The notes under the pieces were generated by a model, which saw only the letters and a program-made list of their open reading frames with translations, was not told where the DNA came from and did no database searches. The position numbers and the translations under genes were made by a program. Source: Syntrophales bacterium (GTDB lineage Bacteria > Desulfobacterota > Syntrophia > Syntrophales > UBA2210). From it: a DNA stretch of 64,000 nucleotides. Position 1 is the stretch's first letter, and each line of letters starts with the position of its first letter. The stretch spans positions 1,152,001 to 1,216,000 of the forward strand of contig CAXXNF010000002.1 of assembly GCA_963666365.2 (NCBI GenBank), given 5' to 3'. This document shows positions 12,287-35,863 of the stretch, in pieces.

Positions 12287-12333
12287 TAATTCACTCCCTT
12301 TTTATCTCGAAGAGAGCATGCGGGGCGGACGAT

Positions 12334-12846
12334 TCATAGATAGTATCCACTTCCAACGACCCATCCGAAGGGCTTGAAAAGAAGTACGTAGGACCGTTTA
12401 GGATGTGGTGCGGTTTCTCCCTTTTTCGAGAACAAATACTCGGTATAGCCGCCGCCGGCACCGCCAATTGCAAGAAACTTCTTGACATAACAGATGCCGT
12501 TGCTGTCCCTGTCCTCGAGGCGATTTCTCCCTTCCACATCGGTACGCCCGTAGAGTACCACGTTCACACCCTCTGTCGTGTCGGCCCAGAAATACCCTTC
12601 CGTCCCATACCTCAGATCGCGCAACAGATCGGCGCCGAGTTTTTTCGCCTCATCAAGTGTAAGTTCACCCCTCTGATGCTTTGCATAGAGCGCCTGAAGC
12701 ATGCTGACCGCAGTTTCCACCTCACACTTGATCAGCAGATCCTGTGCCGATGAACTCGCCCGCTCTTCAGCCTGCGACACCAGGGGCGCCCATAAAAGGG
12801 CAATCACAAGAAAGCCCGCCGCTACCGCTGTCAATGTCTTTTTCAT
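12334..12846 (-). CDS. Secreted single Cache-domain protein
   Basis: Signal peptide; LRYGTEGYFW, GGGYTEYLFSK, PKRSYV, GWVVGSGYY. Confidence 0.85.
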   Translation of the reverse strand: MKKTLTAVAAGFLVIALLWAPLVSQAEERASSSAQDLLIKCEVETAVSMLQALYAKHQRGELTLDEAKKLGADLLRDLRYGTEGYFWADTTEGVNVVLYGRTDVEGRNRLEDRDSNGICYVKKFLAIGGAGGGYTEYLFSKKGETAPHPKRSYVLLFKPFGWVVGSGYYL

Positions 12847-18742: not shown

Positions 18743-19000
18743 CTGCCCTCTTCCTCGGCGCAATAACATAGGACAACATCATGCAAACCCCATATGCCCG
18801 TTCCCAAAGGTCAAATCACCAATTGCGGTTGCTCGTTAGGATACACAGCTCTCCACCACACAACATGGTTCTTACCCGTACCCCGCATGCAATTGGCCGA
18901 TTGTCCAATGTCAGCACTACGTGCATCAGTGCTGCCTGTGAATGTAACCTCGATTCCTCATGATATCAAGGAGAAAAAGCGTTCCTGTCGTGCTGTCAAT

Positions 19001-19050
19001 AATTATGCGCACTGTCCCCGACCTTAATTCCGGGGACAGTATACTTAATT
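19001..19050. repeat. Back-to-back pair of Y1-element ends (diverged end 19001-19020 plus 25-bp TIR 19026-19050)
   Basis: aattatgcgcactgtccccg followed by aattccggggacagtatacttaatt. Confidence 0.8.
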
Positions 19051-19796
19051 CAGTGTTTCCCTTTCGGCCCCGGTTTTTGTTTCCGAACTACACGGTCAAT
19101 AACCTTCTCGACGTAATCAACAAATTGACTGCTTCCCAACGGCCTGCCTGTCCTCTCGTGTAAACGTAAGCGCTGCCCATCTTTATCTTGCACATCCAGC
19201 TTCAGGAACGAATGCCAGTCAGGTACAAGAGCAATTAACGGTTCAACTTTGATTAAATTGTCATCCTCTCCCCGTATGTGAGCACGAGCACTGCTCCACT
19301 TGTAATCCGCAGGCCTCGTCACAAGGCCCGCCCGAACGGGGTTCAACTCGATATATCGAGCAGCAGCAAGGAGATGCAGCTCGTCCATTGGGAAAGAAAA
19401 AAAGCGCTCCTGCCACAAGTGCCCGCGCCACTCGTGGCTGAAATTTATCATCCGCGTATATTGCCGGTGTGCTTCGCCAATCGCAAAGCGTAAGCTGTCA
19501 GACCGTGAGGGAACCGCAATGAGATGTACATGGTTCGGCATAAGACAGTATGCCCAGATTTCAACACTGTGCTGTGTGCATGACTGCCTCATAATGTTGA
19601 TATACTGCCGATAATCATTGTCAGAAAAAAAGTCTGCAGTCGCCGATTTCCCCGCTGAGTGATGTGATGGGGAACATCAGGAACAACAATCCGAGCCATT
19701 CGTCCCACTAATTCAGTGCGTCTCCTTTCAACTTCTGACTGTCAATAATTATGTATACTGTCCCCGGAATTTGGAAAGTATACTGTCCCCGGAATT
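19026..19796 (-). mobile_element. TIR-bounded Y1/HUH transposase element, copy 1
   Basis: TIRs at 19026-19050 and 19747-19771 (24/25 inverted match), extra partial end at 19776-19796. Confidence 0.85.
19050..19708 (-). pseudogene. RAYT-like Y1 tyrosine transposase, frameshifted
   Basis: 1-bp deletion near 19631 relative to the other copies (659 vs 660 bp); YCLMPNHVHL HUH motif, YIELNPVRAG. Confidence 0.88.
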
Positions 19797-19842
19797 AAGA
19801 CGAAATTACGAGCCCCCAGAATTACGCTGAATTATCCCGGAA

Positions 19843-20172
19843 TTACCCAGAATTATCGCCCCCAAAATTACTCTTATCTCGGGATTCACTTTCATCGGAA
19901 TATTCTCTTTTTTTAAACAATTCTTTCATGCATATTTTTAACGCACCTCCACCTATATTTGCTTTTGAAATAGCAGTTATCATGATAAGCAAGAAAAAAA
20001 ATATAGCAATTAATGGTATTGAAATATATTGAGGTAAGTAACTGCTTATAAAAATAATTAGTTTTCTGAATATCCAGACAATAAACCAAAAAGTAGGAAA
20101 TATAAGTAGTGCAACAAATACACCCGCTACAATTTTAACTATGCTGCTCAATTTTTCTTTTTTTGTGGGCAT
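19843..20172 (-). CDS. Putative immunity protein 3 (small membrane protein)
   Basis: AT-rich, 109 aa, two hydrophobic segments, 8 bp downstream of the orphan Rhs CT. Confidence 0.7.
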   Translation of the reverse strand: MPTKKEKLSSIVKIVAGVFVALLIFPTFWFIVWIFRKLIIFISSYLPQYISIPLIAIFFFLLIMITAISKANIGGGALKICMKELFKKREYSDESESRDKSNFGGDNSG

Positions 20173-20180
20173 ATTATAAC

Positions 20181-20799
20181 CTATTTACAAGGAGATGATT
20201 TATTTTCATTGATATCTTCTTCGATTTTTTGAAAATAAAATAATAAAGGATCAAATGTTGTCCTTACTAATAAATCAGTCATACCTTGCCCAAGGCTGTT
20301 TGCTTTTACTTCCAAATAATCTCTTTCAGCATCAGAATATTCGTAGTGCCAGTCATACCAATTTGGTCCATGTTTTTTCCATTGCAGCCCCTCCGGATCC
20401 ACTCCGTTCACTGGATCGTTCATGCAGTATCCGTAGAGGTCGGTGCTGCCGCCGGCGAAGAGGATGGGGTCTTTGGCGGTCCAGCGGCCGGTGTCGGGAT
20501 CGTAGTCGCGGTGGCCGAATCTGATGAGGCTGGTGTCGCGGTCGTGGAGCCCCCCGGCAAAGCCGAAGGGAATCGCAAGTGTCGGGTTGCTGTCTGTGAT
20601 GATGGTGCCGAAACTGTCGTAGATGGTTTCTTTTACTATATTTCCGCTCTCGTCGGCAACTGTTTTGAGCGAGCCGACCTGATCATAGGCCAAATAGTAG
20701 GACCCGCCGCTTGTGGTCATGGCATAGGGCATTCTGCCGTCAGCATATTCAAAGCGCATGAGCAGGGCGTCGCTTCCATCATAGACGGCAAGCAGCCTG
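20181..20799 (-). pseudogene. Orphan Rhs module 3: about 410 bp core fragment plus 68-aa variable C-terminus
   Basis: 20388-20799 nearly identical to the main rhs core end; DPVNGVDPEG then unique CT; truncated 5 bp from a TIR. Confidence 0.88.
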
Positions 20800-21135
20800 A
20801 TCTTAATTCCGGGGACAGTATACTTAATTCAGTGTTTCCCTTTCGGCCCCGGTTTTTGTTTCCGAACTACACGGTCAATAACCTTCTCGACGTAATCAAC
20901 AAATTGACTGCTTCCCAACGGCCTGCCTGTCCTCTCGTGTAAACGTAAGCGCTGCCCATCTTTATCTTGCACATCCAGCTTCAGGAACGAATGCCAGTCA
21001 GGTACAAGGTAAGCGTACGACCAACTCATATAGCAAAAGAATTTTACATGAAGTACGCTGTACCTAAAACCGGTACAGCCGGTGCTCTTTGATAATATGA
21101 TTACGGGATTCAACCGCCGGAATACGGTGCACTGA

Positions 21136-22746
21136 TTATTGTTTTCCCTGGATGATCAGGCCCCGTTCATCCCTGGGCACAGGCTTCCACTGATCGGGAA
21201 GCAGTTCCCGCAGGCGGTTTACGGGATGGCTCATGATCCGCCGAAGCATGTCGTCAAAGTACTCCCAGGGGTTGACGTCGCAGTTTTTGCAAGATTGAAC
21301 GAGACCCATATAAAGGGCCGCCGCCCGGCCGCCCCGTTCGCTGCCCACGAAGAGCCAGTTTTTTCGACCTACCGCTATGGGCCGAATGGCGTTTTCCGCC
21401 AGGTTGTTGTCGGGTCTTAACCGTCCGTCTTTCAGATAGCGGCAGAGCGCCTCCCGCTGATTCAGGGCGTAGTTGATGGCCGTCCGCAACGGCTCCGAGG
21501 GCGTCGTCCGGGGCCTCAGTTCCTCAATCTTTGCAAAGATTCCCTCAAGCAGCGGCGTTGCATGCGCCTGCCGGAAACGGCGCCGCTCCTCGGGCGTCAT
21601 CTCGGCACAGGGGGTCTCCACCTCGTGATAGAGCCGGGCGATGCGGGCAAGGATGTCCGTGGCCTCTTGAGGACGCGATGAAACCGCCTCGTCGAACTTC
21701 CGTCTGGTATGGGCCCAGCAACCCACTTCGATAATCTCTTCTTTTTTGAAAAGTTCGTCGTAGCCGCCGTAGGCGTCGGCATGGACGTACCCCTGGTAAT
21801 CATTGAGATACTCCAGTGGGCGCGTCTTGCTCCGATCAATGGAGAAGTCATAGGCCGTCAGCGGCGGTCCCGGACCGCCCCGCAGATAGACCCAGAGACG
21901 GGCCTTCTTTACCTTGCCGTTTCCCTTGACCTGCAGAGGAACGGGCGTATCGTCGGTAAAGAGCACGTCCCTCTCAAGGACGGCCTTTTGAAGCACTGTT
22001 TCCAAGGGACGAATGCTCTCATAGACCTGCATGAGCCAGCTGGTTTGGGTGGCCCGGGGAATGTCCACTCCTTCCCGCTCCAGAATGCTGTTCTGTCGGT
22101 AGAGAGGCAGATGATCGGCGTACTTGCTGACGATCAGATGAGAAAGCAGCCCCACGTCGGCTTTGCACTTGGCGATGGGGTGATCGGGCAGCGAGGCGGC
22201 GATGACGCCGGCGGTAGATTCCGATGCCTCCGGCAGCGCATACTGGGGCCGCTTGTAGACGTTGACGATCAGTCTCCCCGGCCGGTATTCCAGCTTCTCC
22301 GAGACTTCCACGGAAATGACCTTCAGGGGTGCGCCCGTGTCCGCATCGATCTTTTCATCCTCGGGCACGTCCAGCAGAATCTCCACCCGTTCGAGATGCT
22401 CCGGAATGGGAACCCGGCCGTGATGCCGGGAGGCCTTGCGGGGCTTCTTGACAGTCTCTGTGGCAGAAGCGTCTTCGAACTGTGCTTTCACCGCCGCATT
22501 CTGCTCTAATGATTGAAGCACCATGTCGTCGAACATCAGCTGACCGGGGTTGATCTTTTCGGACTTGCGGCCGTAGAGCCGTTTCAGCAGCTGTTCCATC
22601 TGATGCTGCAGGGTGGTCAACTGGCGCTGGGCGGATTCGAGCTTCTGGGTAAGCGCTTCGATCTGGGCATCCTTTTGGGCGGCAAATTCCAGAATCCAGG
22701 CAGCATCTTTTCGGTCGATAATCTCTTGTGCTTCCGTCAATATCAT
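21136..22746 (-). CDS. tnpC: IS66 DDE transposase
   Basis: LYGRKSEK, KYADHLPLYRQ, DDTPV, CWAHTRRKF, DNNLAENAIR, GRKNWLF. Confidence 0.95.
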   Translation of the reverse strand: MILTEAQEIIDRKDAAWILEFAAQKDAQIEALTQKLESAQRQLTTLQHQMEQLLKRLYGRKSEKINPGQLMFDDMVLQSLEQNAAVKAQFEDASATETVKKPRKASRHHGRVPIPEHLERVEILLDVPEDEKIDADTGAPLKVISVEVSEKLEYRPGRLIVNVYKRPQYALPEASESTAGVIAASLPDHPIAKCKADVGLLSHLIVSKYADHLPLYRQNSILEREGVDIPRATQTSWLMQVYESIRPLETVLQKAVLERDVLFTDDTPVPLQVKGNGKVKKARLWVYLRGGPGPPLTAYDFSIDRSKTRPLEYLNDYQGYVHADAYGGYDELFKKEEIIEVGCWAHTRRKFDEAVSSRPQEATDILARIARLYHEVETPCAEMTPEERRRFRQAHATPLLEGIFAKIEELRPRTTPSEPLRTAINYALNQREALCRYLKDGRLRPDNNLAENAIRPIAVGRKNWLFVGSERGGRAAALYMGLVQSCKNCDVNPWEYFDDMLRRIMSHPVNRLRELLPDQWKPVPRDERGLIIQGKQ

Positions 22747-22798
22747 GAGCGGGCGTATAGCACATAACTATAATAATGTCAAGTGTTTATATTATTTT

Positions 22799-23140
22799 TT
22801 ATGCACATATTTTGTACCGTTTTCCCACTTTTTTCGGCACGATTCCCTCAAGGAGCATGGCCAGATCCCGGCGCTCGATATGACCGTCGCGGGACTGCCG
22901 GGAAGGCAGCACGAAGGACCCCTGCTCCAGACGTTTCAGCCAGATGGCCATGCCGTCGCTGTCCCAGTACAGGAGCTTCACCATGTTCCGCCGCCGGTTG
23001 ACGAAGACGAAGAGTGATCCCGAAAGGGGATCGGCGCTAAGTTCGGCGCGGACAATGCCGCACAGGCCGTCGAAGGACTTGCGCATGTCGCAGGGGCTGC
23101 GATAAAGATAGATGCGTGCCGATGCTGTCAGGCCGAACAT
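22799..23140 (-). CDS. tnpB: IS66 accessory protein
   Basis: DMRKSFDGL, LFVFVNRRR, KRLEQGSF. Confidence 0.95.
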   Translation of the reverse strand: MFGLTASARIYLYRSPCDMRKSFDGLCGIVRAELSADPLSGSLFVFVNRRRNMVKLLYWDSDGMAIWLKRLEQGSFVLPSRQSRDGHIERRDLAMLLEGIVPKKVGKRYKICA

Positions 23141-23457
23141 GGGGAACCATTATGAAGCGTTTCAATAACGGTGCGCAGGGTAACGGGATCGAAGCCGCGT
23201 TCCACTTCGATGGAAAGAAGCGGCCCCATGCAAATGCGAATGCCGGCATAGTCGGCCGTCGAGGATGCAAGTTCGATAAATCCCTGTTGTCCTTGCGGTT
23301 CAGTGAGTTTCCGGCGCCAGGAGTAGAAACTTGCCGTATTGATCTGATGCATCTGGCACCAGGCCAGACCGCTCATCCCGCTTGCGATCTGCCGCTCTAC
23401 GATGGCCGACCAGTGGGCGGTGCGTTCTTGTTGTGTCATAGGGCATCCTCCAATCAT
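23128..23457 (-). CDS. tnpA: IS66 accessory HTH protein
   Basis: SGMS..AWC...I...SFYSWRRKL; overlaps the tnpB start. Confidence 0.88.
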   Translation of the reverse strand: MIGGCPMTQQERTAHWSAIVERQIASGMSGLAWCQMHQINTASFYSWRRKLTEPQGQQGFIELASSTADYAGIRICMGPLLSIEVERGFDPVTLRTVIETLHNGSPCSA

Positions 23458-24137
23458 GAAATGTGTTCATGACGGGAAGCTATAATCCAATGTGCGTTCA
23501 AGCGAAAGATGAGTTGGTCGTACGGTTACGGTACAAGAGCAATTAACGGTTCAACTTTGATTAAATTGTCATCCTCTCCCCGTATGTGAGCACGAGCACT
23601 GCTCCACTTGTAATCCTCAGGCCTCGTCACAAGGCCCGCTCGAACGGGGTTCAACTCGATATATCGAGCAGCAGCAAGGAGATGCAGCTCGTCCATTGGG
23701 AAAGAAAAAAAACGCTCCTGCCACAAGTGCCCGCGCCACTCGTGGCTGAAATTTATCATCCGCGTATATTGCCGGTGTGCTTCGCCAATCGCAAAGCGTA
23801 AGCTGTCAGACCGTGAGGGAACCGCAATGAGATGTACATGGTTCGGCATAAGACAGTATGCCCAGATTTCAACACTGTGCTGTGTGCATGACTGCCTCAT
23901 AATGTTGATATACTGCCGATAATCATTGTCAGAAAAAAATGTCTGCAGTCGCCGATTTCCCCGCTGAGTGATGTGATGGGGAACATCAGGAACAACAACC
24001 CGAGCCATCCGTCCCACTAATTCAGTGCGTCTCCTTTCAACTTCTGACTGTCAATAATTATGTATACTGTCCCCGAAATTTGATGGCGCCGAATAATTAT
24101 GTATACTGTCCCCGAAATTTCTGTCCCCGGAATTCTA

Positions 24138-24506
24138 TTAAAACCTTTTCTTTCTGTAAAAAAATATAAAAAAAATTCTAATGGGCCAAGCCAAGAAAAC
24201 CGCAATAAAAACGAAAATCGCGCTGATGTTTGGTATGGCTTTAATAAAGAATGAAGCCGCACCGTTAAGAAGAGTCAAGGTGGCCATCAAAAAGCATATA
24301 GCCGCTGCCAACCGATCCCCCATGTTTAAAATTTTTTTTTCTTTGAGATCAGGAAAGAAGAAATGGTCTATATCGAATCTATTTTTTATGATTTTTCCTT
24401 TGTTGTGCCAAATTCCTTCTATAAACATTAAACCGATCATAATCATAATAAAAGCAAGGATGGTGTTAATAGCTATAGGCGATGTCATACCACTCTCACT
24501 TTCCAC
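24138..24506 (-). CDS. Putative immunity protein 2 (small membrane protein)
   Basis: AT-rich, 122 aa, about three hydrophobic segments, overlaps the orphan Rhs CT stop. Confidence 0.7.
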   Translation of the reverse strand: MESESGMTSPIAINTILAFIMIMIGLMFIEGIWHNKGKIIKNRFDIDHFFFPDLKEKKILNMGDRLAAAICFLMATLTLLNGAASFFIKAIPNISAIFVFIAVFLAWPIRIFFIFFYRKKRF

Positions 24507-26112
24507 ACGGCGATGATGAAGTCCTTATTGGTGTTGTAAAGTTAACTGGTAAACCTAACCCCAAGCCCAAACCAACTGAAACTCCATCGATATATTTTAA
24601 GGGATCATACCATGCTTTATTAGGATCAAACTCATTCCTTAAGGTGATCTGAGCACCACCATATCTGCCTGAACCAATCGCAATCGTTGACCCAGCTTGG
24701 TTACCTGTTCCACTTAAATCTGAGACACCCGCTGAAACACCAATATCTGCCCACACACCAGCCACGGCCTCAGGTTTTGGATCTGTCGCTACTAAATGAC
24801 CTGATGCATCTAAACTTGTTAGCTGTGAACCTACCGTGCCTCCAACTGCAACGGGCCAAGGGCCAGTCGGAGCATGAACACCAGCGTTATAAGAAAACAT
24901 CCATCGCCCCTCCGGATCCACTCCGTTCAACGGATCGTTCATGCAGTATTCGTATAGGTCGGTGTCGCCGCCGGCGAAGAAGATGGGGTCTTTGGCGGTC
25001 CAGCGGCCGGTGTCGGGATCGTAGTCGCGGTGGCCGAATCTGATGAGGCTGGTGTCGCGGTCATGGAGCCCCCCGGCAAAGCCGAAGGGAATCGCAAGTG
25101 TCGGGTTGCTGTCTGTGATGATGGTGCCGAAGCTGTCGTAGATGGTTTCTTTTACTATATTTCCGCTCTCGTCGGCAACTGTTTTGAGCGAGCCGACCTG
25201 ATCATAGGCCAAATAGTAGGACCCGCCGCTTGTGGTCATGGCATAGGGCATTCTGCCGTCAGCATATTCAAAGCGCATGAGCAGGGCGTCGCTTCCATCA
25301 TAGACGGCAAGCAGCCTGGTCAATCCGAGCCAGAGGTATTTTTCGATGATGACGCCATTGACTGCTTTGGCGATCCTTCGCCCCAGCGGATCATGAACGT
25401 AATCGATGGCGGTGCCGTCGGGAAGCGTGACGCCCATAAGTTCTCCCCGGCTGGAGTAGTCGTAGGTGGTGGTGTTTCCCGAACCATCTGTTCTGGTAGT
25501 CAGAAAGCCGTCCACGCTATACTGATAGGAAGTGTCCCCGACCGTCAGAAGGTGATCCTCGTCGGAGTAGGCGTAACTCCTGCCCGCAATCCCCCTCAGA
25601 CTGTTCATCTCATAGACCCTGACGCCGCTGAGATCATACTGGTATTCTTCCACCAAATTCCCGTTTTCATGCACTGTGCACAGCCGACCTGCGCAATCGT
25701 AACCATAATCGTAGGAGTTTGTTTCACCGCCGATGGTTTCCGTTTTTTCGATGATTCTCCCGTTGCTGTCCCGAACGGCGTGCCAGCCGGCTACCGGTTG
25801 GGAGGCAATGCTGCAGGTTTCCTCTTCTAATTCGCCATAGCCGTTATAGCTTCTCTCCACTGACAGATTGCCGTCAGCAACAGATTCGGGAAGACCGTTG
25901 CCGCTATTTCTGGCAATGGAGAATCGTCCCGCACCGGTAAGCAGACGATCCCTGTCATAGGAATATTCTTCCCTGTCGCCGGCATAGGCAACCCCAACAA
26001 GATTGAAGTCGCTATTGTAGGAGAAGCCGAGCGACTGCGCAATCGTACCGCTGTGATGCGCTTCGGTGACCAGTGTTCCGTCGTAGCTGTAGTCGATTGT
26101 CTCCGTGCCGCT
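24496..26112 (-). pseudogene. Orphan Rhs module 2: 1206-bp core fragment plus 136-aa variable C-terminus
   Basis: 24907-26112 nearly identical to 29393-30598; DPLNGVDPEG then unique CT; truncated 5 bp from a TIR. Confidence 0.9.
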
Positions 26113-26117
26113 AGGGG

Positions 26118-26291
26118 AATTCCGGGGACAGTATACTTAATTACTGACAGCCGGTAATTAAAAGACTGGCAGACCGTTGGGAAGCAATCAGTTTACAGAT
26201 AATGTTGAAAAACTGTTTGACCGTATGGTTCGCAGACAGAAGCCTTGGCCGAAAGGAAAAAATCTGAATTAAGTATACTGTCCCCGGAATT
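26118..26291 (+). mobile_element. Miniature non-autonomous TIR element (174 bp)
   Basis: Perfect 25-bp inverted ends; interior encodes a diverged Y1 transposase C-terminus (KTGRPLGSNQF...QKPWPKGK). Confidence 0.85.
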
Positions 26292-26380
26292 TGAATTATG
26301 TCGCTGGTCCAGTTTTGCCGGACCGGTTCCTCTTGAACAATTGTTGCCTTTGGGCAACAGTTTTTACTTTTGATTTGGTG

Positions 26381-26420
26381 AATTCCAGGGGCAGTAAATA
26401 AGTATGCTGTCCCCGGAATT
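26381..26420. repeat. Degenerate empty TIR doublet
   Basis: aattccaggggcagta-aat-aagtatgctgtccccggaatt. Confidence 0.7.
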
Positions 26421-26492
26421 AGCATAAATATGATTTGATAACAAGAGATTGAAAGGGGGATAGGAAGAAGTGCGATTTCTGGTGCGGTCACT

Positions 26493-26915
26493 TCATTGCC
26501 TTTTTATGAGCCATTCACCTCCCCGTTTGTACAGAATGAGGGGATTGTCCGATTGGTGTGTATTACCATATACTCTTACCCATCCTTCCGAGGGACATGA
26601 CCCCGCCCAGTATGTACGGATCGTATATTTACATTTTCCTTGACTCCCCTGGCTTTCCGTGGGTTTGACGCATTTGGTGCTTTTTGCCGGGACATACAGG
26701 TCGATGGGATTTCCCCACGTGCAATCGCCTATTCCGGATCCGCTTCCGCAAGGACTTCCACCGGAATCGACGCATATATATACGTGCCACCCTTTGCTCT
26801 CCGTATTTTTGATACAGATACCCGCCGATACGGTAGTAACCGACAGGAGTAAGATGATCAAAGGAATGGCCATATACCCGGTTATTATTCTTAATATTGG
26901 CGCGATCTTCATCAT
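26493..26915 (-). CDS. Secreted Cys-rich hypothetical protein
   Basis: Strong RBS (aaaggaggg), signal peptide ending VSA, 7 Cys in the mature part. Confidence 0.75.
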   Translation of the reverse strand: MMKIAPILRIITGYMAIPLIILLLSVTTVSAGICIKNTESKGWHVYICVDSGGSPCGSGSGIGDCTWGNPIDLYVPAKSTKCVKPTESQGSQGKCKYTIRTYWAGSCPSEGWVRVYGNTHQSDNPLILYKRGGEWLIKRQ

Positions 26916-27020
26916 TGATATCCCTCCTTTATTGGAAAATTAACCTTATTCCATCTTCCCCCTTTCTGTAAGTAATGTCCTTCTGAGAAGGTAATGTCAA
27001 GATAATTTTGACTATTTTGG

Positions 27021-27832
27021 AATTCCGGGGACAGTATACTTATTGGAATTCCGGGGACAGTATACTTAATTCAGTGTTTCCCTTTCGGCCCCGGTTTTTG
27101 TTTCCGAACTACACGGTCAATAACCTTCTCGACGTAATCAACAAATTGACTGCTTCCCAACGGCCTGCCTGTCCTCTCGTGTAAACGTAAGCGCTGCCCA
27201 TCTTTATCTTGCACATCCAGCTTCAGGAACGAATGCCAGTCAGGTACAAGAGCAATTAACGGTTCAACTTTGATTAAATTGTCATCCTCTCCCCGTATGT
27301 GAGCACGAGCACTGCTCCACTTGTAATCCGCAGGCCTCGTCACAAGGCCCGCCCGAACGGGGTTCAACTCGATATATCGAGCAGCAGCAAGGAGATGCAG
27401 CTCGTCCATTGGGAAAGAAAAAAAGCGCTCCTGCCACAAGTGCCCGCGCCACTCGTGGCTGAAATTTATCATCCGCGTATATTGCCGGTGTGCTTCGCCA
27501 ATCGCAAAGCGTAAGCTGTCAGACCGTGAGGGAACCGCAATGAGATGTACATGGTTCGGCATAAGACAGTATGCCCAGATTTCAACACTGTGCTGTGTGC
27601 ATGACTGCCTCATAATGTTGATATACTGCCGATAATCATTGTCAGAAAAAAATGTCTGCAGTCGCCGATTTCCCCGCTGAGTGATGTGATGGGGAACATC
27701 AGGAACAACAACCCGAGCCATCCGTCCCACTAATTCAGCGCGTCTCCTTTCAACTTCTGACTGTCAATAATTATGTATACTGTCCCCGAAATTTGATGGC
27801 GCCGAATAATTATGTATACTGTCCCCGAAATT
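27021..27832 (-). mobile_element. TIR-bounded Y1/HUH transposase element, copy 3
   Basis: Doubled ends at 27021-27042/27047-27071 and 27769-27793/27808-27832. Confidence 0.85.
27071..27730 (-). CDS. RAYT-like Y1 (HUH) tyrosine transposase, intact
   Basis: HHITQRGNRR, YCLMPNHVHL, GHLWQERF, YIELNPVRAGLV, YKWSS. Confidence 0.92.
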   Translation of the reverse strand: MGRMARVVVPDVPHHITQRGNRRLQTFFSDNDYRQYINIMRQSCTQHSVEIWAYCLMPNHVHLIAVPSRSDSLRFAIGEAHRQYTRMINFSHEWRGHLWQERFFSFPMDELHLLAAARYIELNPVRAGLVTRPADYKWSSARAHIRGEDDNLIKVEPLIALVPDWHSFLKLDVQDKDGQRLRLHERTGRPLGSSQFVDYVEKVIDRVVRKQKPGPKGKH

Positions 27833-27837
27833 ACGCC

Positions 27838-28612
27838 CAGTATACTTAATTCAGTGTTTCCCTTTCGGCCCCGGTTTTTGTTTCCGAACTACACGGTCAA
27901 TAACCTTCTCGACGTAATCAACAAATTGACTGCTTCCCAACGGCCTGCCTGTCCTCTCGTGTAAACGTAAGCGCTGCCCATCTTTATCTTGCACATCCAG
28001 CTTCAGGAACGAATGCCAGTCAGGTACAAGAGCAATTAACGGTTCAACTTTGATTAAATTGTCATCCTCTCCCCGTATGTGAGCACGAGCACTGCTCCAC
28101 TTGTAATCCTCAGGCCTCGTCACAAGGCCCGCTCGAACGGGGTTCAACTCGATATATCGAGCAGCAGCAAGGAGATGCAGCTCGTCCATTGGGAAAGAAA
28201 AAAAACTCTCCTGCCACAAGTGCCCGCGCCACTCGTGGCTGAAATTTATCATCCGCGTATATTGCCGGTGTGCTTCGCCAATCGCAAAGCGTAAGCTGTC
28301 AGACCGTGAGGGAACCGCAATGAGATGTACATGGTTCGGCATAAGACAGTATGCCCAGATTTCAACACTGTGCTGTGTGCATGACTGCCTCATAATGTTG
28401 ATATACTGCCGATAATCATTGTCAGAAAAAAATGTCTGCAGTCGCCGATTTCCCCGCTGAGTGATGTGATGGGGAACATCAGGAACAACAACCCGAGCCA
28501 TCCGTCCCACTAATTCAGTGCGTCTCCTTTCAACTTCTGACTGTCAATAATTATGTATACTGTCCCCGAAATTTGATGGCGCCGAATAATTATGTATACT
28601 GTCCCCGAAATT
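27838..28612 (-). mobile_element. TIR-bounded Y1/HUH transposase element, copy 4 (tandem with copy 3, one end truncated)
   Basis: Partial end cagtatacttaatt at 27838-27851; doubled ends at 28549-28573 and 28588-28612. Confidence 0.85.
27851..28510 (-). CDS. RAYT-like Y1 (HUH) tyrosine transposase, intact
   Basis: 219 aa, differs from copy 3 at two residues (ERF/ESF, PAD/PED). Confidence 0.92.
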   Translation of the reverse strand: MGRMARVVVPDVPHHITQRGNRRLQTFFSDNDYRQYINIMRQSCTQHSVEIWAYCLMPNHVHLIAVPSRSDSLRFAIGEAHRQYTRMINFSHEWRGHLWQESFFSFPMDELHLLAAARYIELNPVRAGLVTRPEDYKWSSARAHIRGEDDNLIKVEPLIALVPDWHSFLKLDVQDKDGQRLRLHERTGRPLGSSQFVDYVEKVIDRVVRKQKPGPKGKH

Positions 28613-28623
28613 ACGCCAGGATG

Positions 28624-28971
28624 TTATTGGAGCCTGTTTGTTGTTTTTATTATCCCCATTTTCATCAAAATATACATAAAAACAAAAAAGGTGGGCACAA
28701 AACTGCAAAGATAATAAGATCCTAATTTTTTCATTAGGCTTATATCTTCGACAAAAAACCATATAATCTTAACTGGAAACCAAATTGCAGCAAATCCAAA
28801 TAAAACAGGAAGAGCAATCCTCCATAATATGTCAAATCCATACAACCAAAAATTTCTTTGTCTTTTTTCAACAACAATATATTTTTTAAATTTATTTACA
28901 TAGACGAGCAAGGCGCTAACTCCTAAAGCCACCAGTATTGCAAAAAGACATACAATGATTTTAGCTGCCAT
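28624..28971 (-). CDS. Putative immunity protein 1 (small membrane protein)
   Basis: AT-rich, 115 aa, three hydrophobic segments, 19 bp downstream of the main rhs. Confidence 0.72.
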   Translation of the reverse strand: MAAKIIVCLFAILVALGVSALLVYVNKFKKYIVVEKRQRNFWLYGFDILWRIALPVLFGFAAIWFPVKIIWFFVEDISLMKKLGSYYLCSFVPTFFVFMYILMKMGIIKTTNRLQ

Positions 28972-28990
28972 AATTATATCTCACAATCAT

Positions 28991-31900
28991 TTAATAGTTA
29001 GCATTAGCATGAAGTGTCGTTGACACCCCTCCAGCTATAGCGCCACTGAAAAAGGCAGCATCAACAGCTACTGTTCCCCCTTTGAGCATAGCCGTGCCAG
29101 CACCTCCCCCAATAGCACCAGCTAATGCATTAATTGCAACAGAAAGTGTGTCAATATGACCGCACGGCTTTGAAATTTTTTGTCCAATTAGATCCGATGT
29201 TACTCCAACACCTGCCCCTATTGCCGCATTCACTAGAACAGATGAGCCAAACGATATTCCCGCCAAAGCTCCAACAGCGGCACCCATGAAAGCCCCTTTG
29301 ATAATACTTTCTCTCTTGAAAATTGCATCGGCAGTTCCAATTGCGGCACCCACAGCGGCACCAACTCCGGCAGCGGCCAAATTTATAAACAACCCCTCCG
29401 GATCCACTCCGTTCACTGGATCGTTCATGCAGTATCCGTAGAGGTCGGTGCTGCCGCCGGCGAAGAGGATGGGGTCTTTGGCGGTCCAGCGGCCGGTGTC
29501 GGGATCGTAGTCGCGGTGGCCGAATCTGATGAGGCTGGTGTCGCGGTCGTGGAGCCCCCCGGCAAAGCCGAAGGGAATCGCAAGTGTCGGGTTGCTGTCT
29601 GTGATGATGGTGCCGAAGCTGTCGTAGATGGTTTCTTTTACTATATTTCCGCTCTCGTCGGCAACTGTTTTGAGCGAGCCGACCTGATCATAGGCCAAAT
29701 AGTAGGACCCGCCGCTTGTGGTCATGGCATAGGGCATTCTGCCGTCAGCATATTCAAAGCGCATGAGCAGGGCGTCGCTTCCATCATAGACGGCAAGCAG
29801 CTTGGTCAATCCGAGCCAGAGGTATTTTTCGATGATGACGCCATTGACTGCTTTGGCGATCCTTCGCCCCAGCGGATCATGAACGTAATCGATGGCGGTG
29901 CCGTCGGGAAGCGTGACGCCCATAAGTTCTCCCCGGCTGGAGTAGTCGTAGGTGGTGGTGTTTCCCGAACCATCTGTTCTGGTAGTCAGAAAGCCGTCCA
30001 CGCTATACTGATAGGAAGTGTCCCCGACCGTCAGAAGATGATCCTCGTCGGAGTAGGCGTAACTCCTGCCCGCAATCCCCCTCAGACTGTTCATCTCATA
30101 GACCCTGACGCCGCTGAGATCATACTGGTATTCTTCCACCAAATTCCCGTTTCCATGCACTGTGCACAGCCGACCTGCGCAATCGTAACCATAATCGTAG
30201 GAGTTTGTTTCACCGCCGATGGTTTCCGTTTTTTCGATGATTCTCCCGTTGCTGTCCCGAACGGCGTGCCAGCCGGCTACCGGTTGGGAGGCAATGCTGC
30301 AGGTTTCCTCTTCTAATTCGCCATAGCCGTTATAGCTTCTCTCCACTGACAGATTGCCGTCAGCAACAGATTCGGGAAGACCGTTGCCGCTATTTCTTGC
30401 AATGGAGAATCGTCCCGCACCGGTAAGCAGACGATCCCTGTCATAGGAATATTCTTCCCTGTCGCCGGCATAGGCAACCCCAACAAGATTGAAGTCGCTG
30501 TTGTAGGAGAAGCCGAGCGACTGCGCAATCGTACCGCTGTGATGCGCTTCGGTGACCAGTGTTCCGTCGTAGCTGTAGTCGATTGCCTCCGTGCCGCTGG
30601 TAACGGATGCCACCTTTGTGCCGCACAGATAGGTATAGTGTATGCTTCCTTCCGGTGTAAGAACCTGCGTGAGCCGTGCGCCATCGTAGATATGTTCAAT
30701 CCGGTTTCCCGAGGGGAATGTGGTGCAGATAAGGCGCCGGTCTTTGTCATAGAGATAGCGATACGCCCCGCTGACAGGCGCCTGATAGAGCGAAAGATTG
30801 TTGACCCTGTTATAGTCGAAGATATGGCTGACGGAGGCGGGCGTCACAAGGGTTTCACGATTTCCATTTGCATCATAGCCGAAGTAAAGAACGCTATCGT
30901 CCGGCCGATAGAGGGCCGTCATCCGCCCTGCCGGGTCATAGTCATAGGTAGTGGTGAAACCCTGCGGATCGGTCCAGGAAGAGCAAAATCCTTCACCGTT
31001 GTAACTCCAGGTCATCTGCCGTGTTCCCTGTGTCAGAGATGTAAGCCTTTCTCGTCCATCGTAGCCGTAGAAGGTGTCAAAAAGACCGGGGACGCTGCTG
31101 CTTGTGATAAGAAGGGTTGCCGAGTCGTAGGCAGTGTTCGCGGTCCTTCCCTCCGGCGAGATTGCCGTCTTTTGTGACTGAATGACATCCTTTTCTAGAA
31201 CCGCAGCATTGCCGTTAACATTGACGGTTTCGGTAATCAGATCGAAAATCCCGTCGCTGTCGGTGTCTGCATACGATTTGCTCCGTTCGGTCGTCCGCTC
31301 CAACCCCGAGGGAGTGCGTTCCGTCATGGTCGTTATGTAAGGGTATTTATACTGCGGGTCCGTATCGTAGGTAAAGGCAAGATTCATTCCGCAGGACAGT
31401 GTCTTCTTTACCGAAAGACCGTCGGCCGATCGATTGAACAGAGTGGCGCTCCCGGTAGGATCAGTAATAATGGACGCGTATGCCCCTGTTGAATCAGTCC
31501 TATCCAGATAGGATGTCCTATTGCCTTCCGCCGTGAGAACATTGACAAGAACGGCCCCGTTTTCAAGGAGGGCTCGTTCATAATTCCAGCATCCGCCTTC
31601 TTCATCGAGTGCATCGGTAAGTCGACCGGTTGAATCGAAGAGGTGATCGAATCTGTTTCCCGACGGTTCCGTCTCGACGAGCAAAAGCCCCTCGGGCGTG
31701 TAATCAAAGGTGTAAACGGCGCCATCGGGACCTGTAACACCGGTAAGATGGTTGTGCTCATCTATAGTCAACGTGGTAATCAGCCCGTCGGAGGAGACAA
31801 TGGCCGTGGGAATGCCGTCTCCATCGCGTTGCAGTGCAACGACAGCGCCGAAACGGTCATAAATGGCAGTCAGGTTATTATTATCGTCGTATTCGAATCG

Positions 31901-34900
31901 GTACAGCATCACCCCAGTATCGGGATCTATTGTTTGTGTATGCAACCCCGCAGCGGACATAATATAGGCCATGCCGTCATTATCGACAAACACAAGGTCG
32001 TCGCTTTCGGTGTAATCATTGAACACGGCGGGCAGTGCCACTTTTCGCACGCGCTGGTAACATACAATAATAAGATGCCCCGCACCATCTATTGTAATTC
32101 CTGTTGGTACACACACCCCTGTTCCTGTCGCAGGCACACCCTCGTCATTGTTGTCCTGACTGCCGTTACCCGCCACGGTTGTGATATTTCCGGCAGTATC
32201 GACCTTTCGAATTTTATTGCCACTCGGATCCGTGATATAGAGATTGCCGATTTGATCGACGACAACGTCCCGGGGACCGGCAATGCCCGCCTCAACTGCA
32301 GGTCCGCCATCACCGGATGATTCCCTGCGGCCGTTTCCCGCCACTGTGCTGATAACGCCTGATGTATCTATTTTTCTCACCCGACAGTTGTAGTTGTCTG
32401 ACAGATAAATATTCCCACGCATGTCAACGGTCATTCCATAAACCCGGGAACTCAGTTGCGCATTGAGGGCGTTTCCGCCATCACCGCCCCATCCTTCTTC
32501 ACCGTTTCCCGCAATAGTAGTAATAATGCCCTGTGTATCCACTTTTCTGAGCCGGCGGCTTCCCAACTCCATCAGGTAGAGGTTTCCTTCGGTATCGACG
32601 GTAATCGCTTCGACATAATCAATCCCCGCATTGACGGCAGGTCCGCCATCGCCACTGGAACCCCATATGCCATTGCCCGCCACGGTGGTAATGACGCCCC
32701 GTGTATCAATTTTTCTAATACGACAGTTGCATGTGTCGGCGATATAAAGATTTCCTTCGCGATCGAGAGCAATGCCGTTCGGATAATCCAGTTGTGCGTT
32801 GACCGCAAGCCCGCCGTCACCGCAATAACCGGCTTGGCCGTTTCCCGCAATAGTAGTAATGATCCCATCAGAATCGACCTTTCTCATGCACTGATTCCCC
32901 GTATCGACAATATAGTAGTTGCCTTCCGCATCAGCAGCAACGTGTCTCGGATATCTGAATCGCGCATCAATCGCCGGTCCTCCGTCGCCGCTGTATCCGC
33001 TTTCCTGCACACCCGCGACAGTGTTGATAAGCGAAATATTATTTTCACACCGTTCGCCGTTCCCCTTCGAGATAAATGATGGATTGACAGGATCAAGTTT
33101 GTGATGCATCGACAGCGTCCATCCTTCGGCGATGGTGGCTACATGGTCTCGATGAACCATTGCATCTCTGTTCTTCCACAGGACGACTTCAGATCTGCCC
33201 AGTATGGGATATGGTTCCACGCCTGCAAAGCCAAAGGCCTGTGCAAGATCCATCCGTGCCCCAGCAAACCAGATATCGTATACGAAGCCTGTTTGAATGC
33301 GTACGGGAACAGCGCCTTCTACAGGGTTCCCCAGAAAATCCATCCCGTCCCACTCAACCTGTGTTACCTGATAGGGCAGCGGATCCAAGGTGCTCTCGAA
33401 GGTTCTCCCCGCCACCGTGACCTGAACCATAATGCGTTTCAGGCTTGCCGGCACAGTCTCGCCGCTGACAGGAACGGTAATTACCGTTTTGTAACTATGC
33501 ACACGGTTGCTTGCATAGTGAAGGGTGATATCTGTTCCCGCAACATGAATATCTTCATGAAATGTGCGGCTTCGTTCCTCTACAAAAGAATTGAGGGCGG
33601 TAGTGCAAGTTTCTTCTTTCACTTTTTCCTGATCGACGAGGGGTTCCACCTCCGGATTGGGAGCTGTCGCATCAGCGGGCATTGAATAGGGCCAATTGTA
33701 ATCGACAGGCGTAAAATGTGACACTGCTGCACGCCAGAACGTTTCATTCGGCGGATAGTGAAGCGGATCATTCAAGCCCTGCACTTCATCGGCAACAAGG
33801 CCATCGCCGTTCAGATCATCCGCCGTTTCGTCACCGTCGGCATCGAGGGCATCGGCAATCCCGTCGCCGTCGGTGTCGAGCAGTCTCACAACGACGCCGT
33901 TTTCGGCGGGGACCCAGACACCACGGTCTCTATTGTAGAATCCAACGGGGACAACGGCGCCGACGGGGAAGCCAAGAAAATTGTCAATCCAGGTGACTAC
34001 CGGTTTTTCGAACCGCACCCGCTCGATCCCGTCTACTTCCAGCTCGACGCAGTACGTATAGGCGGAAGTGGGCGGGAGCACGGAGGGCATGGAATCTTCG
34101 GTCGTATATTCCGTGGCCCGCGCAGTGATGGTGGTAAGTTCAAGAATGTCGTTGCCGGCTTCGTCCGTCATGTAGGCGCGGTTGTCACCGGTAAAGACGA
34201 TCGAGCAGGCGCGGCTGCCGAACTCGTCGATTACTACGCTGCTTTGGTGCGCTACTGCCGTTGTGGGATTTCCATCAAAGGTAAAGGTGGTGGAGCGGGG
34301 ATCCCGTGCAATCATCCGGATGGGTTCAGCCGCGACGACATCGTTCCAGGGAACAAAGACCTTTCGCTGCGCACTGCAGAATTCCTCTTTATAATATGTG
34401 AGAACCACCGTTCCCCCACCCTCGACGGGAACACTGAAAAAGCCGGTATCGTCGGTATAGGCAGTTCCATATTCGGGGTGGCTATAAATTGTGACGGCAA
34501 CACCCGAAAGAGGTGAATCATCATCGGCGACGACCATCCCCCGCACGATCGAAAAGCGCCGGGAATCATATCTATCCAGCGTGGCATCGGCAGGGACCAG
34601 CTCCTGATATCGTGCGCCGAAGGAACCCTCGGGGAGGACTTCCGGGGTTCCCTCGACCACGATTACGGCTCGTGCACGTGCCGAGCCGTGGGGGCCGCAT
34701 GCAGTAATGCAATACGTGGTGGTATGTGCGGGGGTGACAAGACAAGAACCGGAGGTGGATACCGCGCCGATGCCGTTGTCGATAACTACGAACGCGGCGC
34801 CTTCCGCGCTCCAGGAGAGCGTGGCTGCACCGTCTTTGTGAATCACCGATGGCGTCGCTGCGATTGTCACGGTGGGAGGTGATGCTTGTGATTCCTGCGT

Positions 34901-35284
34901 GATAACGACCGTAAGAACGGCGCCCGGCTTGCCATCAAGTGCCACCGTAATTGTGTTGTCATCGATAAGATCAATTGTTTCTTCGATCGTGTCGGTATGG
35001 CCTTTAAAATCTCGTGGAGTAAATATCGGAATGCCATTCACATCGATACGCGCACTCGAAACGGCATGCTTTTTATTTCCATCGCCATTATAAACCGTAA
35101 GGCGTCCCGCGCCGGCCGCTGCAGAAAATGCATCCACCGCAACGGCGGGCTTCCCTTTACCCCTGGCGTAGACTTTCGGCCCAAAGACCGCGGTGACATC
35201 CGCAAAGGAAACAGTGTGTATACACATAAGAACCACCACAAATACTCCAGTCAGAACGATCCTTTTCATGATTCCCTCCTTCAA
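28991..35284 (-). CDS. Teneurin-like Rhs/YD-repeat protein with NHL repeats and polymorphic C-terminus
   Basis: Signal peptide MKRIVLTG...SFA; about six NHL repeats (ITTVAGNG..GDGG.A); YD repeats; PFGFAGGL..RDYDP.TGRW...DPEG core; 133-aa Gly/Ala-rich CT. Confidence 0.92.
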   Translation of the reverse strand: MKEGIMKRIVLTGVFVVVLMCIHTVSFADVTAVFGPKVYARGKGKPAVAVDAFSAAAGAGRLTVYNGDGNKKHAVSSARIDVNGIPIFTPRDFKGHTDTIEETIDLIDDNTITVALDGKPGAVLTVVITQESQASPPTVTIAATPSVIHKDGAATLSWSAEGAAFVVIDNGIGAVSTSGSCLVTPAHTTTYCITACGPHGSARARAVIVVEGTPEVLPEGSFGARYQELVPADATLDRYDSRRFSIVRGMVVADDDSPLSGVAVTIYSHPEYGTAYTDDTGFFSVPVEGGGTVVLTYYKEEFCSAQRKVFVPWNDVVAAEPIRMIARDPRSTTFTFDGNPTTAVAHQSSVVIDEFGSRACSIVFTGDNRAYMTDEAGNDILELTTITARATEYTTEDSMPSVLPPTSAYTYCVELEVDGIERVRFEKPVVTWIDNFLGFPVGAVVPVGFYNRDRGVWVPAENGVVVRLLDTDGDGIADALDADGDETADDLNGDGLVADEVQGLNDPLHYPPNETFWRAAVSHFTPVDYNWPYSMPADATAPNPEVEPLVDQEKVKEETCTTALNSFVEERSRTFHEDIHVAGTDITLHYASNRVHSYKTVITVPVSGETVPASLKRIMVQVTVAGRTFESTLDPLPYQVTQVEWDGMDFLGNPVEGAVPVRIQTGFVYDIWFAGARMDLAQAFGFAGVEPYPILGRSEVVLWKNRDAMVHRDHVATIAEGWTLSMHHKLDPVNPSFISKGNGERCENNISLINTVAGVQESGYSGDGGPAIDARFRYPRHVAADAEGNYYIVDTGNQCMRKVDSDGIITTIAGNGQAGYCGDGGLAVNAQLDYPNGIALDREGNLYIADTCNCRIRKIDTRGVITTVAGNGIWGSSGDGGPAVNAGIDYVEAITVDTEGNLYLMELGSRRLRKVDTQGIITTIAGNGEEGWGGDGGNALNAQLSSRVYGMTVDMRGNIYLSDNYNCRVRKIDTSGVISTVAGNGRRESSGDGGPAVEAGIAGPRDVVVDQIGNLYITDPSGNKIRKVDTAGNITTVAGNGSQDNNDEGVPATGTGVCVPTGITIDGAGHLIIVCYQRVRKVALPAVFNDYTESDDLVFVDNDGMAYIMSAAGLHTQTIDPDTGVMLYRFEYDDNNNLTAIYDRFGAVVALQRDGDGIPTAIVSSDGLITTLTIDEHNHLTGVTGPDGAVYTFDYTPEGLLLVETEPSGNRFDHLFDSTGRLTDALDEEGGCWNYERALLENGAVLVNVLTAEGNRTSYLDRTDSTGAYASIITDPTGSATLFNRSADGLSVKKTLSCGMNLAFTYDTDPQYKYPYITTMTERTPSGLERTTERSKSYADTDSDGIFDLITETVNVNGNAAVLEKDVIQSQKTAISPEGRTANTAYDSATLLITSSSVPGLFDTFYGYDGRERLTSLTQGTRQMTWSYNGEGFCSSWTDPQGFTTTYDYDPAGRMTALYRPDDSVLYFGYDANGNRETLVTPASVSHIFDYNRVNNLSLYQAPVSGAYRYLYDKDRRLICTTFPSGNRIEHIYDGARLTQVLTPEGSIHYTYLCGTKVASVTSGTEAIDYSYDGTLVTEAHHSGTIAQSLGFSYNSDFNLVGVAYAGDREEYSYDRDRLLTGAGRFSIARNSGNGLPESVADGNLSVERSYNGYGELEEETCSIASQPVAGWHAVRDSNGRIIEKTETIGGETNSYDYGYDCAGRLCTVHGNGNLVEEYQYDLSGVRVYEMNSLRGIAGRSYAYSDEDHLLTVGDTSYQYSVDGFLTTRTDGSGNTTTYDYSSRGELMGVTLPDGTAIDYVHDPLGRRIAKAVNGVIIEKYLWLGLTKLLAVYDGSDALLMRFEYADGRMPYAMTTSGGSYYLAYDQVGSLKTVADESGNIVKETIYDSFGTIITDSNPTLAIPFGFAGGLHDRDTSLIRFGHRDYDPDTGRWTAKDPILFAGGSTDLYGYCMNDPVNGVDPEGLFINLAAAGVGAAVGAAIGTADAIFKRESIIKGAFMGAAVGALAGISFGSSVLVNAAIGAGVGVTSDLIGQKISKPCGHIDTLSVAINALAGAIGGGAGTAMLKGGTVAVDAAFFSGAIAGGVSTTLHANANY

Positions 35285-35640
35285 AGCAGCAATTCATTGC
35301 GTGCGGGCGGCGGGATCTTCCTTCACTTCAGCAGGCGCCATACATATGCCGGCGCCTCAGGGGTCCATGCCCCGTCGCCGTTAAATGGATTTATTGCGGT
35401 TTGTGGTGAGGATAGAGGTTGAGGATTGCTCTGATGTGGACTCTGCAATAAGGTTCGGACACTGAAAAAAAATAAACGTTTTTATAGTAGCGCCTTATAA
35501 ATTCAAGCGCATACCACCGAAACCACGAATCGAAAGCAGTTAATGATGTAAGGCTGCATAGTACCTCAAAAGGCAATGAAATTTAATACTGAATTACTAC
35601 GGTAAAAATTGCGCTCATTCCAGGTAGTTCAACCCCTGGG

Positions 35641-35850
35641 AATTCCGGGGACAGTATACTTAATTACTGACAGCCGGCAATTAAAAGGAGAAGTAATGTA
35701 ATTAAAGGACTGGCAGACCGTTGGGAAGCAATCAGTTTATAGATAATGTTGAAAAACTGTTTTACCGTATGGTTCGCAGACATAAGCCTGGGCCGAAAGG
35801 AAAAAATCAGAATTAAGTATACTGTCCCCGGAATTATAGTCCCCGGAATT
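35641..35850 (+). mobile_element. Miniature non-autonomous TIR element (195 bp) plus partial extra end
   Basis: TIRs at 35641-35665 and 35811-35835, partial 35839-35850; interior homologous to 26143-26266 with a small insertion. Confidence 0.85.
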
Positions 35851-35863
35851 ATACCCTGTTGCG

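Follow-up and report, generated by a model that had tools for sequence, protein, structure and literature searches.

TIRtron elements partition an Rhs polymorphic-toxin array in a Syntrophales bacterium

The locus described here lies in the genome of a Syntrophales bacterium (GCA_963666365.2; 4.0 Mb on two contigs; G000 below), within a 64-kb stretch, G000:C2:1152001-1216000, which we call the window and whose positions we use throughout. It is an Rhs polymorphic-toxin array, made of one full rhs gene and two displaced orphan modules, and it is partitioned by a family of TIRtrons, that is, genes for a Y1 (HUH) protein set between terminal inverted repeats (TIRs). All of it is read on the minus strand. 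Each orphan module consists of a truncated rhs core (core'), a C-terminal region (CT) and a putative immunity gene, and the array further contains four TIRtron copies of ~780 bp, two gene-less mini-elements, doublets and partial ends. Along the minus strand its first half runs mini-element, full rhs, imm1, two tandem Y1 genes, an open reading frame (ORF) of 140 aa and a doublet, and its second half mini-element, core' with CT2, imm2, Y1, core' with CT3, imm3 and Y1. An earlier annotation of the window (the original prediction) had given this same order, and ORFs, Pfam and self-comparison agree with it. After every CT-immunity module of the window array there is a full TIRtron, a gene-less mini-element or a remnant of one.

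What these boundaries have in common is a 25-bp repeat. We searched the whole window for AATTCCGGGGACAGTATACWTAATT with up to 3 mismatches, using 100 shuffles as a control, and found 16 matches, all of them within 19026-35835, with 0.00 expected and no match elsewhere in the 64 kb. Shorter partial copies bring the number in this interval to ~20, which is what had been predicted, including the confinement of full copies, as far as the window goes, to the array.

The array begins with a mini-element of 195 bp (35641..35835), a gene-less miniature inverted-repeat transposable element (MITE) with inverted 25-bp ends, located 356 bp upstream of the rhs start; its interior, inverted relative to the Y1 genes, resembles the 3' part of the element that carries them (~80%). 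The full-length rhs gene (28991..35284, minus) encodes 2097 aa with TTR, NHL, YD shell and Rhs-associated core matches (Pfam/NCBIfam), followed by CT1, and behind it stands putative imm1 (28624..28971, minus), a 115-aa ORF without family match that is assigned an immunity role from its position alone. Two elements follow in tandem: TIRtron A (27838..28617, minus), with a doubled left end (28612..28549) and an intact Y1 gene (28510..27851), and TIRtron B (27047..27837, minus), with a doubled left end (27832..27769), an intact Y1 gene for 219 aa (27730..27071) and a right end (27071..27047). The right end of TIRtron A breaks off after GTATACTG, where TIRtron B follows head to tail, and beyond TIRtron B lies an extra solo right-end-type repeat with 2 mismatches (27021..27045). 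The 140-aa ORF (26493..26915, minus) stands between repeat copies; by eye it has a hydrophobic N-terminus and many Cys residues, it gave no family match and has no second copy in the genome, and it is possibly a passenger gene. It is followed by a degenerate empty doublet (26379..26420), in which one repeat and an inverted partial partner are 12 nt apart.

The second mini-element (26118..26291, 174 bp) is 96% like the one at 35641-35835 and ends 5 bp from orphan 2 (24496..26112, minus), whose core' (26112..24907) is 98.8% identical to positions 30598..29393 of the full gene and is continued by CT2; the gene frame with the YD-shell end spans 24496-25860. Putative imm2 (24138..24506, minus; 122 aa) was assigned by position, and 3 bp past its stop there is a partial repeat, AATTCCGGGGACAG (24122..24135), a stutter copy ending ACAG. 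TIRtron C comes next in two parts, a left one (23530..24119, minus) with the doubled left end and Y1 codons 1-163, and a right one (20805..21008, minus) with the 3' end of the Y1 gene and the right end (20829..20805). Between them, inside Y1 copy C, sits an IS66 insertion sequence (IS) of 2521 bp (21009..23529, minus) with three ORFs (21136-23457) and an 8-bp target duplication. Orphan 3 (20181..20802, minus; frame 20181-20759) has a core' (20802..20388) that is 99.3% identical to 29807..29393, then CT3, and is followed by putative imm3 (19843..20172, minus; 109 aa), whose stop overlaps a partial repeat. A stutter run of truncated repeat starts (19798..19850) lies outside the left end of TIRtron D (19026..19797, minus), which has a doubled left end, a frameshifted Y1 gene and a right end at 19050..19026, and immediately past it is a degenerate left-end-like repeat, GGTCGGGGACAGTGCGCATAATTATTGACAG (18990..19022). 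The four Y1 copies announced by the original prediction are thus present, though it had overlooked both the IS66 that splits the third and the frameshift in the fourth. The stop codon of Y1 copy C (TGA, 20829-20831) is in frame with orphan 3, and no further stop interrupts this frame across the right repeat and on to the core; a Y1 remnant and core' are in phase also at L121, a locus of another genome, and not at L122.

TEN_YD-shell, RHS_repeat and TIGR03696 match the full rhs gene and both orphans. There was no Pfam or NCBIfam match for the three CTs, the three small ORFs after them or an upstream 492-aa ORF, and the toxin roles of CT1-CT3 and the immunity roles of the genes downstream are putative, being assigned by position only.

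Each Y1 unit is built of a doubled left repeat, the 219-aa gene and one right repeat, with 25-bp inverted ends at all four copies. GGGGACAG is present in every repeat copy and fits the motif GGGGWSAS. The protein matches Pfam Y1_Tnp (E 5e-14), HVH and Y..ELNPVRAG motifs can be read in its translation, and its best NCBIfam match is REP_Tyr_transpos at 77.7 bits, just below the cut-off of 80. It continues for ~80 residues past the Y1 core (219 aa against a core of 121-146 positions), and no HTH family was matched in the Pfam scan. The element belongs to the TIRtron/TIRYT class, which is known but barely studied. TIRYTs are described, in the accessible text of the paper, as RAYT-like genes between inverted repeats with the GGGGWSAS motif (Di Nocera, De Gregorio & Rocco 2013, PMC3733652); the available part of a later survey equates them with TnpA-Y1 subclass 2.1, found in 14.9% of the strains surveyed (Quentin et al. 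2018, PMC6006769). The original prediction had given the TIRYT name, and the motif, the Y1_Tnp match and the inverted ends all agree with it. Membership in IS200/IS605 was rejected on a transpos_IS200 score of 22.8 bits (cut-off 55) and the presence of inverted ends, membership among REP/RAYT elements (REPtrons) on the four gene copies, the lack of a GTAG hairpin form and the 48 repeat-core matches in 4.0 Mb, and that of an integron on the finding of no integrase-family match in the 16 ORFs of the region, where Y1 and IS66 are the only recombinases.

The repeat ends and the cassette edges lie very close to each other. A repeat end, full or partial, is 11, 3 and 0 bp away from the stop codons of imm1, imm2 and imm3, and the orphan cores are cut close to repeat ends, both as predicted. 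On the core side we count five independent joints, in three genomes, at which the outer end of an element is 2-9 bp from a truncated rhs core. In the window these are the joint of CT3, with a gap of 2-5 bp (20802 versus the right end at 20805) and 415 nt of core kept, and that of CT2, made through the mini-element, with a gap of 5 bp (26112 versus 26118) and 1206 nt kept; elsewhere they are L121 (gap 5 bp, ~190 nt of core), L122 (9 bp, ~180 nt) and L127 in genome G038 (2 bp, ~120 nt). The repeat differs at L122 and L127, where the Y1 proteins are 63% and 45% identical to that of the window, and L121 keeps a Y1 C-terminal remnant only, with the same repeat core. At ordinary loci, the distance from the Y1 stop to the next ORF has a median of 136 nt and is at most 36 nt in 5/45.

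Another type of joint was seen in genome G014 and at L003 and L124, where a left end and 60-110 nt of element leader are fused to core', the L003 joint keeping also the first 20 Y1 codons; we would read these as decayed elements. The nine aligned G014 joints contain one common module and differ in their stutters of truncated repeat starts. The immunity stop is 22-73 nt from the repeat in 5/9 of them, and the unique immunity sequence reaches the outer end of the repeat, with its own stutter at each joint.

By stutter we mean runs of truncated repeat starts outside the outer end, the copies usually ending at GGGGACAG; they were noted at 19798-19850 and 24122-24135 of the window, at 7950-8030 of L122 and at 6715-6750 of L123. 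The junction between the tandem TIRtrons A and B is located at this very point, at GGGGACAG, and since stutter copies and junction both end there, we infer a candidate nick site after GGGGACAG. The stutter itself suggests one of two things, nicking 14 nt from the end or an element that repeatedly inserts into an end of its own. It is no specific mark of rhs loci, as it was found at 55/149 ends outside them and 4/11 inside. A few cases of duplicated flanks against repeat ends were also found among the 73 loci of the matches listed, such as the non-rhs loci L032 (1800-2066/5355-5622, 268 bp) and L038 (5825-5997/6127-6298, 173 bp), where the duplicated segments adjoin repeat ends within 2-4 bp; one of these two duplications is beside an inverse-autotransporter gene.

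In the host genome as a whole, the 14-mer core of the repeat has 48 matches when 1 mismatch is allowed, of which 17 belong to the array and 31 to the rest of the genome, 7 inverted doublets being included. Y1 copies of at least 97% identity are confined, within G000, to the array, and seven diverged paralogues (33-58%) are found elsewhere; the totals are 14 Rhs-associated core and 16 Y1_Tnp matches. Defining the rhs zone as everything within 3 kb of an rhs frame, i.e. 3.0% of G000, we found 5/13 Y1 loci inside it (binomial P 3e-5). IS66 is present in 8 copies, distributed over contigs C1 and C2 (in the window at 21009-23529 and 46378-47985), with identical 536-aa transposases.

Two further rhs loci of this genome carry Y1-type elements of other kinds. 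At L001 (G000:C1:375000-390000) a broken classical IS200 occupies the spacer separating an orphan core from an immunity gene (5650-6340), and the main rhs gene (6956-12724) has SpvB, TcdB_toxin_midN and FG-GAP domains and is thus Tc-like. At L002 (G000:C1:724000-743999; 3830-4600 and 6981-7200) there is a second TIRtron family, with 37% Y1 identity and the repeat GGTAAAAGGGGACAGATTTATTTATT, which begins ~10 bp past the rhs stop with no immunity ORF in between; upstream in the same locus a Y1 gene cut after the HUH motif adjoins a truncated core. Finally, G000:C1:399381-399997 has an exact repeat of the left-end type, followed ~180 bp downstream by a Y1 gene that is much diverged (34%, in a frame of 293 aa).

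Outside G000, relatives of the Y1 protein were found in 28/41 related genomes (G000 included), none close enough for a strain comparison: the best Y1 is 62% identical among the 40 related genomes and 66% among 80 metagenome loci. The exact 25-mer occurs in at least 118 stretches of species genomes, spread over many phyla by record label, these being labels of metagenome-assembled genomes (MAGs) that may err. Among the matches listed, rhs is within 6 kb at 8/73 distinct exact-repeat loci with flanks, and in 7/8 of these rhs-linked loci the repeat is 0.5-4.5 kb downstream of the core. Repeats were then counted genome-wide in five genomes already holding rhs-linked repeat loci. In G041 all 5/5 matches (3 loci) are beside its 3 rhs loci, in G042 3/3 (2 loci) are beside rhs and in G044 2/4 loci are; taking, over the five genomes, only the loci not used to pick a genome, 4/10 are within ~2 kb of the end of an rhs core. 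The 40 relatives had been sampled without regard to the repeat, and one of them, G014, has three orphan arrays and one further locus, with 16 core ends between them; 12/13 of its repeat matches are inside the arrays, where they head orphan units. These array repeats are in direct orientation, one per cassette, and the G014 arrays contain no Y1 gene apart from one weak fragment at an edge; the eight TIRYT genes of the genome itself come with a variant of the repeat. Among metagenome contigs, collected blind to rhs, rhs-like sequence was found at 3/80 loci with Y1 relatives (56-66% identity). The rhs association and its stereotyped geometry, in which an immunity stop is followed by a left end, the Y1 gene, a right end and a truncated core and which other genomes show independently, are real, and in some genomes far above general IS richness.

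How such joints arise can be read in more than one way. The explanation we favour, though tentatively and with a chance a little short of even, is that the element end has an active part in making the cassette joints, which then spread through homology of the core. What we count for an active role is the anatomy of the array and its recurrence in other genomes, where the five joints differ in core length (~120-1206 nt) and in repeat. We also count as hints of active ends that unique immunity sequence reaches the outer edge of the repeat with a stutter peculiar to each joint, and that stutter copies and the A/B junction fall at GGGGACAG. Some event directed by the ends, with the right end as its fixed point, would reach back into the rhs core; it might be a one-ended mobilisation of the ISCR/IS91 type, an aberrant excision or a nick-induced duplication. 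Its product would be a core'-CT-imm-TIRtron unit, closed by a joint of right end and core'. Homologous recombination through the core would load a new CT onto the full gene and leave the old CT as an orphan beginning at an element end, and the joint modules might afterwards spread by homologous recombination alone. This last step would fit G014, as one decayed module heads at least nine orphans there and no Y1 with the identical repeat is present.

Other observations weigh against an active element end, and some of them favour passive colonisation instead. According to the latter explanation, selfish TIRtrons land in rhs DNA, which is extensive, IS-tolerant and dispensable, or seek out copies of their own ends, and are inserted into the core or into the spacer between immunity gene and core'. 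Homologous recombination between alleles or between element copies would come next, and hitch-hiking on growing arrays and on horizontally spreading cassettes would multiply the copies, the enzyme being idle in cassette movement; we regard it as a serious possibility, if on the improbable side. In G000 only 2/24 repeat sites outside the array are inside the rhs zone (P 0.16), as compared to 3/8 copies of IS66 (P 0.001), so that outside the array the repeat is not clearly enriched at rhs, while an unrelated IS is. Other IS are found in or at rhs arrays as well (rve IS, 4/30 in G014 and 1/6 in G041; DDE_Tnp_1, 1/12 and 1/3; together 5/42 and 2/9), and a classical IS200 sits in the immunity-core' spacer of another G000 array. 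Self-targeting, as part of the same explanation, is suggested by the tandem elements and by the stutter at ends outside rhs. The 12 G014 copies have one module in common and may go back to a single event, and joints inside the Y1 gene (orphan 2 of L003, and L002) resemble plain deletions.

The most direct comparison is offered by L127 (G038:C14:158000-171000), in which the core end of the main gene, its CT and its immunity gene are duplicated (6193-7726 / 9338-10667, 88-92% identical). The older CT-immunity copy, at the far end of the array, has no TIRtron, which gives a comparison of filled and empty states, and the element-free joint starts its core within ~4 nt of the element-bearing one; as both start at nearly the same point, this suggests that the cut point in L127 is perhaps not set by the element. 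Joints without the repeat are known also from L030, the second orphan of L001 and genome G212, where an orphan array has a 68% homologue of CT2 followed by a 46% homologue of imm2 (a CT2/imm2 match was found in 2/401 genomes of the phylum, G000 included). Relatives with the same cassette ends and no repeat were what the original prediction had named as evidence against itself, and, since the orphan array of G212 lacks the repeat and one joint of G038 the element, such relatives do in part exist. At L018 the orphan joints (6100-6480, 9790-9960, 11640-11760) carry another hairpin repeat, GCAAAAATAGGGACACTCCCCCATTTTTATAG, with stutter, in place of the TIR. No microhomology or pseudo-end motif was found upstream of the five cut points in full-length cores. 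No circle or strain variant was seen, the reads being short-read contigs of 4 runs that end at repeats, IS66 and the core duplication. Their apparent 'joints' either correspond to repeat doublets from other parts of G000 or are flanked by 20-70 letters on a side, and they speak neither for nor against rearrangement.

The distribution of the repeat points in the same direction. There is no rhs nearby at 65/73 exact-repeat loci among the matches listed, nor at 77/80 metagenome Y1 loci, and the neighbours of the repeat at loci without rhs, as far as scanned (125/239 selected ORFs at 34/65 loci), are mostly ordinary genes, with a few toxin-antitoxin genes and, among these 125 ORFs, no other polymorphic toxins. 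The element remains a generalist, and some cassettes do without it. The enrichment at rhs for which the original prediction had proposed a test is found in G014 and G041 and is not clear in G000 outside the array, and most of the listed loci have no rhs nearby. Moreover, Y1 (single-tyrosine) enzymes are known to transpose by peel-and-paste and are not known to capture by rolling circle. On the other hand, passive colonisation fits several findings poorly: should the 120-1206 nt of core' accept insertions equally well throughout, five independent landings 2-9 bp from the core start would be unlikely, none of the ~15 rhs-linked loci read has an rhs gene that is simply interrupted with both junctions present, and the counts of 12/13 in G014 and 5/5 in G041 are above those of other IS in the same genomes.

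An integron-like alternative, in which the TIRYT would excise and integrate CT-immunity cassettes site-specifically at an attC-like repeat, appears very improbable to us. HUH enzymes do act at hairpin-associated sites, where they cleave and reseal single strands, every cassette has a repeat after it, the G014 repeats are direct and one per cassette, and junction stutters differ between cassettes, all of which would suit it. Yet no cassette was found in two places with repeat boundaries, the CT2/imm2 homologue in G212 comes without the repeat, the G014 arrays lack a Y1 gene of identical repeat, most of the listed repeats have no toxin gene nearby, and core lengths vary from cassette to cassette, as expected of homologous recombination and not of a fixed site. 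A broader proposal, that TIRYTs cut out and rejoin core'-CT-immunity units and so form an HUH-nuclease cassette system reshuffling toxin arrays across phyla, seems to us unlikely. Of the original idea that the element captures, delimits or reorders cassettes, there stands the link to their boundaries, which is real and recurs; movement of cassettes by the enzyme and integron-like catalysis found no support.

The elements might also be retained for the sake of expression, the left end or the Y1 transcript driving or terminating orphan transcription and selection keeping the element in place, although this we hold to be highly unlikely. The Y1 gene is co-oriented with rhs in 9/9 loci read by eye (window, L018, L030, L122, L124, L127, L130, L137, L138), left end and 5' leader have been retained, fused to core', at the joints of G014 and L003, and orphan 3 is in phase with the stop of the Y1 gene before it. 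However, Y1 is co-oriented with its neighbours in 56/84 cases anyway, which gives 9/9 a P of ~0.03, and in 18800-36200 neither promoter-like sites (28, against 18.9 in shuffles, standard deviation 4.0) nor terminator-like sites (23, against 18.2, standard deviation 4.6) are above shuffles.

Rhs orphan arrays and C-terminal displacement were reportedly treated by Jackson in 2009 and by Koskiniemi in 2014. Exchange of Rhs CTs is thought to proceed by homologous recombination through the core (PMC3150448, accessible text), and gain and retention of orphan modules have so far been explained in outline only, by that route. A recurrent boundary element ties the question of how the 5' edges of orphans are fixed to that of what TIRYT proteins do, and both are testable, with a candidate nick site, the single-stranded repeat as substrate and a joint of right end and rhs core as predicted product. 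The layout recurs in distant bacteria, hinting that the element helps to build toxin arrays. An HUH cassette system, if true, would be the first cellular role for the large RAYT-group-1/TIRYT family, and a link that proved passive would still be a strong example, so far unreported, of toxin cassettes carrying a mobile element along as a hitch-hiker. Among open full texts, we found no report linking TIRYT/RAYT elements or a boundary repeat to rhs, and the word Rhs is absent from the accessible parts of both TIRYT papers (PMC3733652 and PMC6006769); the class of element is already known, and its link to rhs boundaries is apparently unreported.

Compared with known systems, the element is most like the TIRtrons/TIRYTs as these are described in the accessible literature: a RAYT-like Y1/HUH protein longer than classical RAYTs, TIRs with GGGG[AT][CG]A[CG] (here GGGGACAG), and repeats that also occur solo, as dimers and in clusters genome-wide. 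It differs from the published ones by four near-identical gene copies in one locus, stereotyped at rhs cassette boundaries. With REP/REPIN-RAYT systems it shares the enzyme superfamily and short intergenic repeats, often in inverted doublets (7 in G000), whereas its ends are 25-bp inverted repeats with no GTAG-type REP hairpin, and its gene is multi-copy. ISCR/IS91 elements and integron cassettes offer an analogy, with one fixed and one variable end, captured genes beside the element and a hairpin-forming site after each cassette, but the window enzyme is a single-Tyr Y1 protein, neither a Y2 rolling-circle enzyme nor the IntI tyrosine recombinase. Polyimmunity loci resemble the window in that a recombination function adjoins toxin/immunity arrays; judging by the accessible text, XerC/D recombinase genes beside such loci were proposed to help gene accumulation (Zhang et al. 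2012, PMC3482391; see also bioRxiv 10.64898/2026.07.13.738213), and these, unlike the present case, are tyrosine site-specific recombinases, with no Y1/HUH enzyme or TIR repeat. The array as such is like the Rhs orphan arrays of Poole et al. (2011, PMC3150448), where a full rhs gene stands first and core'-CT-immunity orphans come after it, their cores near-identical to that of the main gene; in the accessible text of that paper IS and transposon genes disrupt orphans and no specific boundary element is mentioned, whereas both orphan cores of the window array have an element end for their 5' edge.

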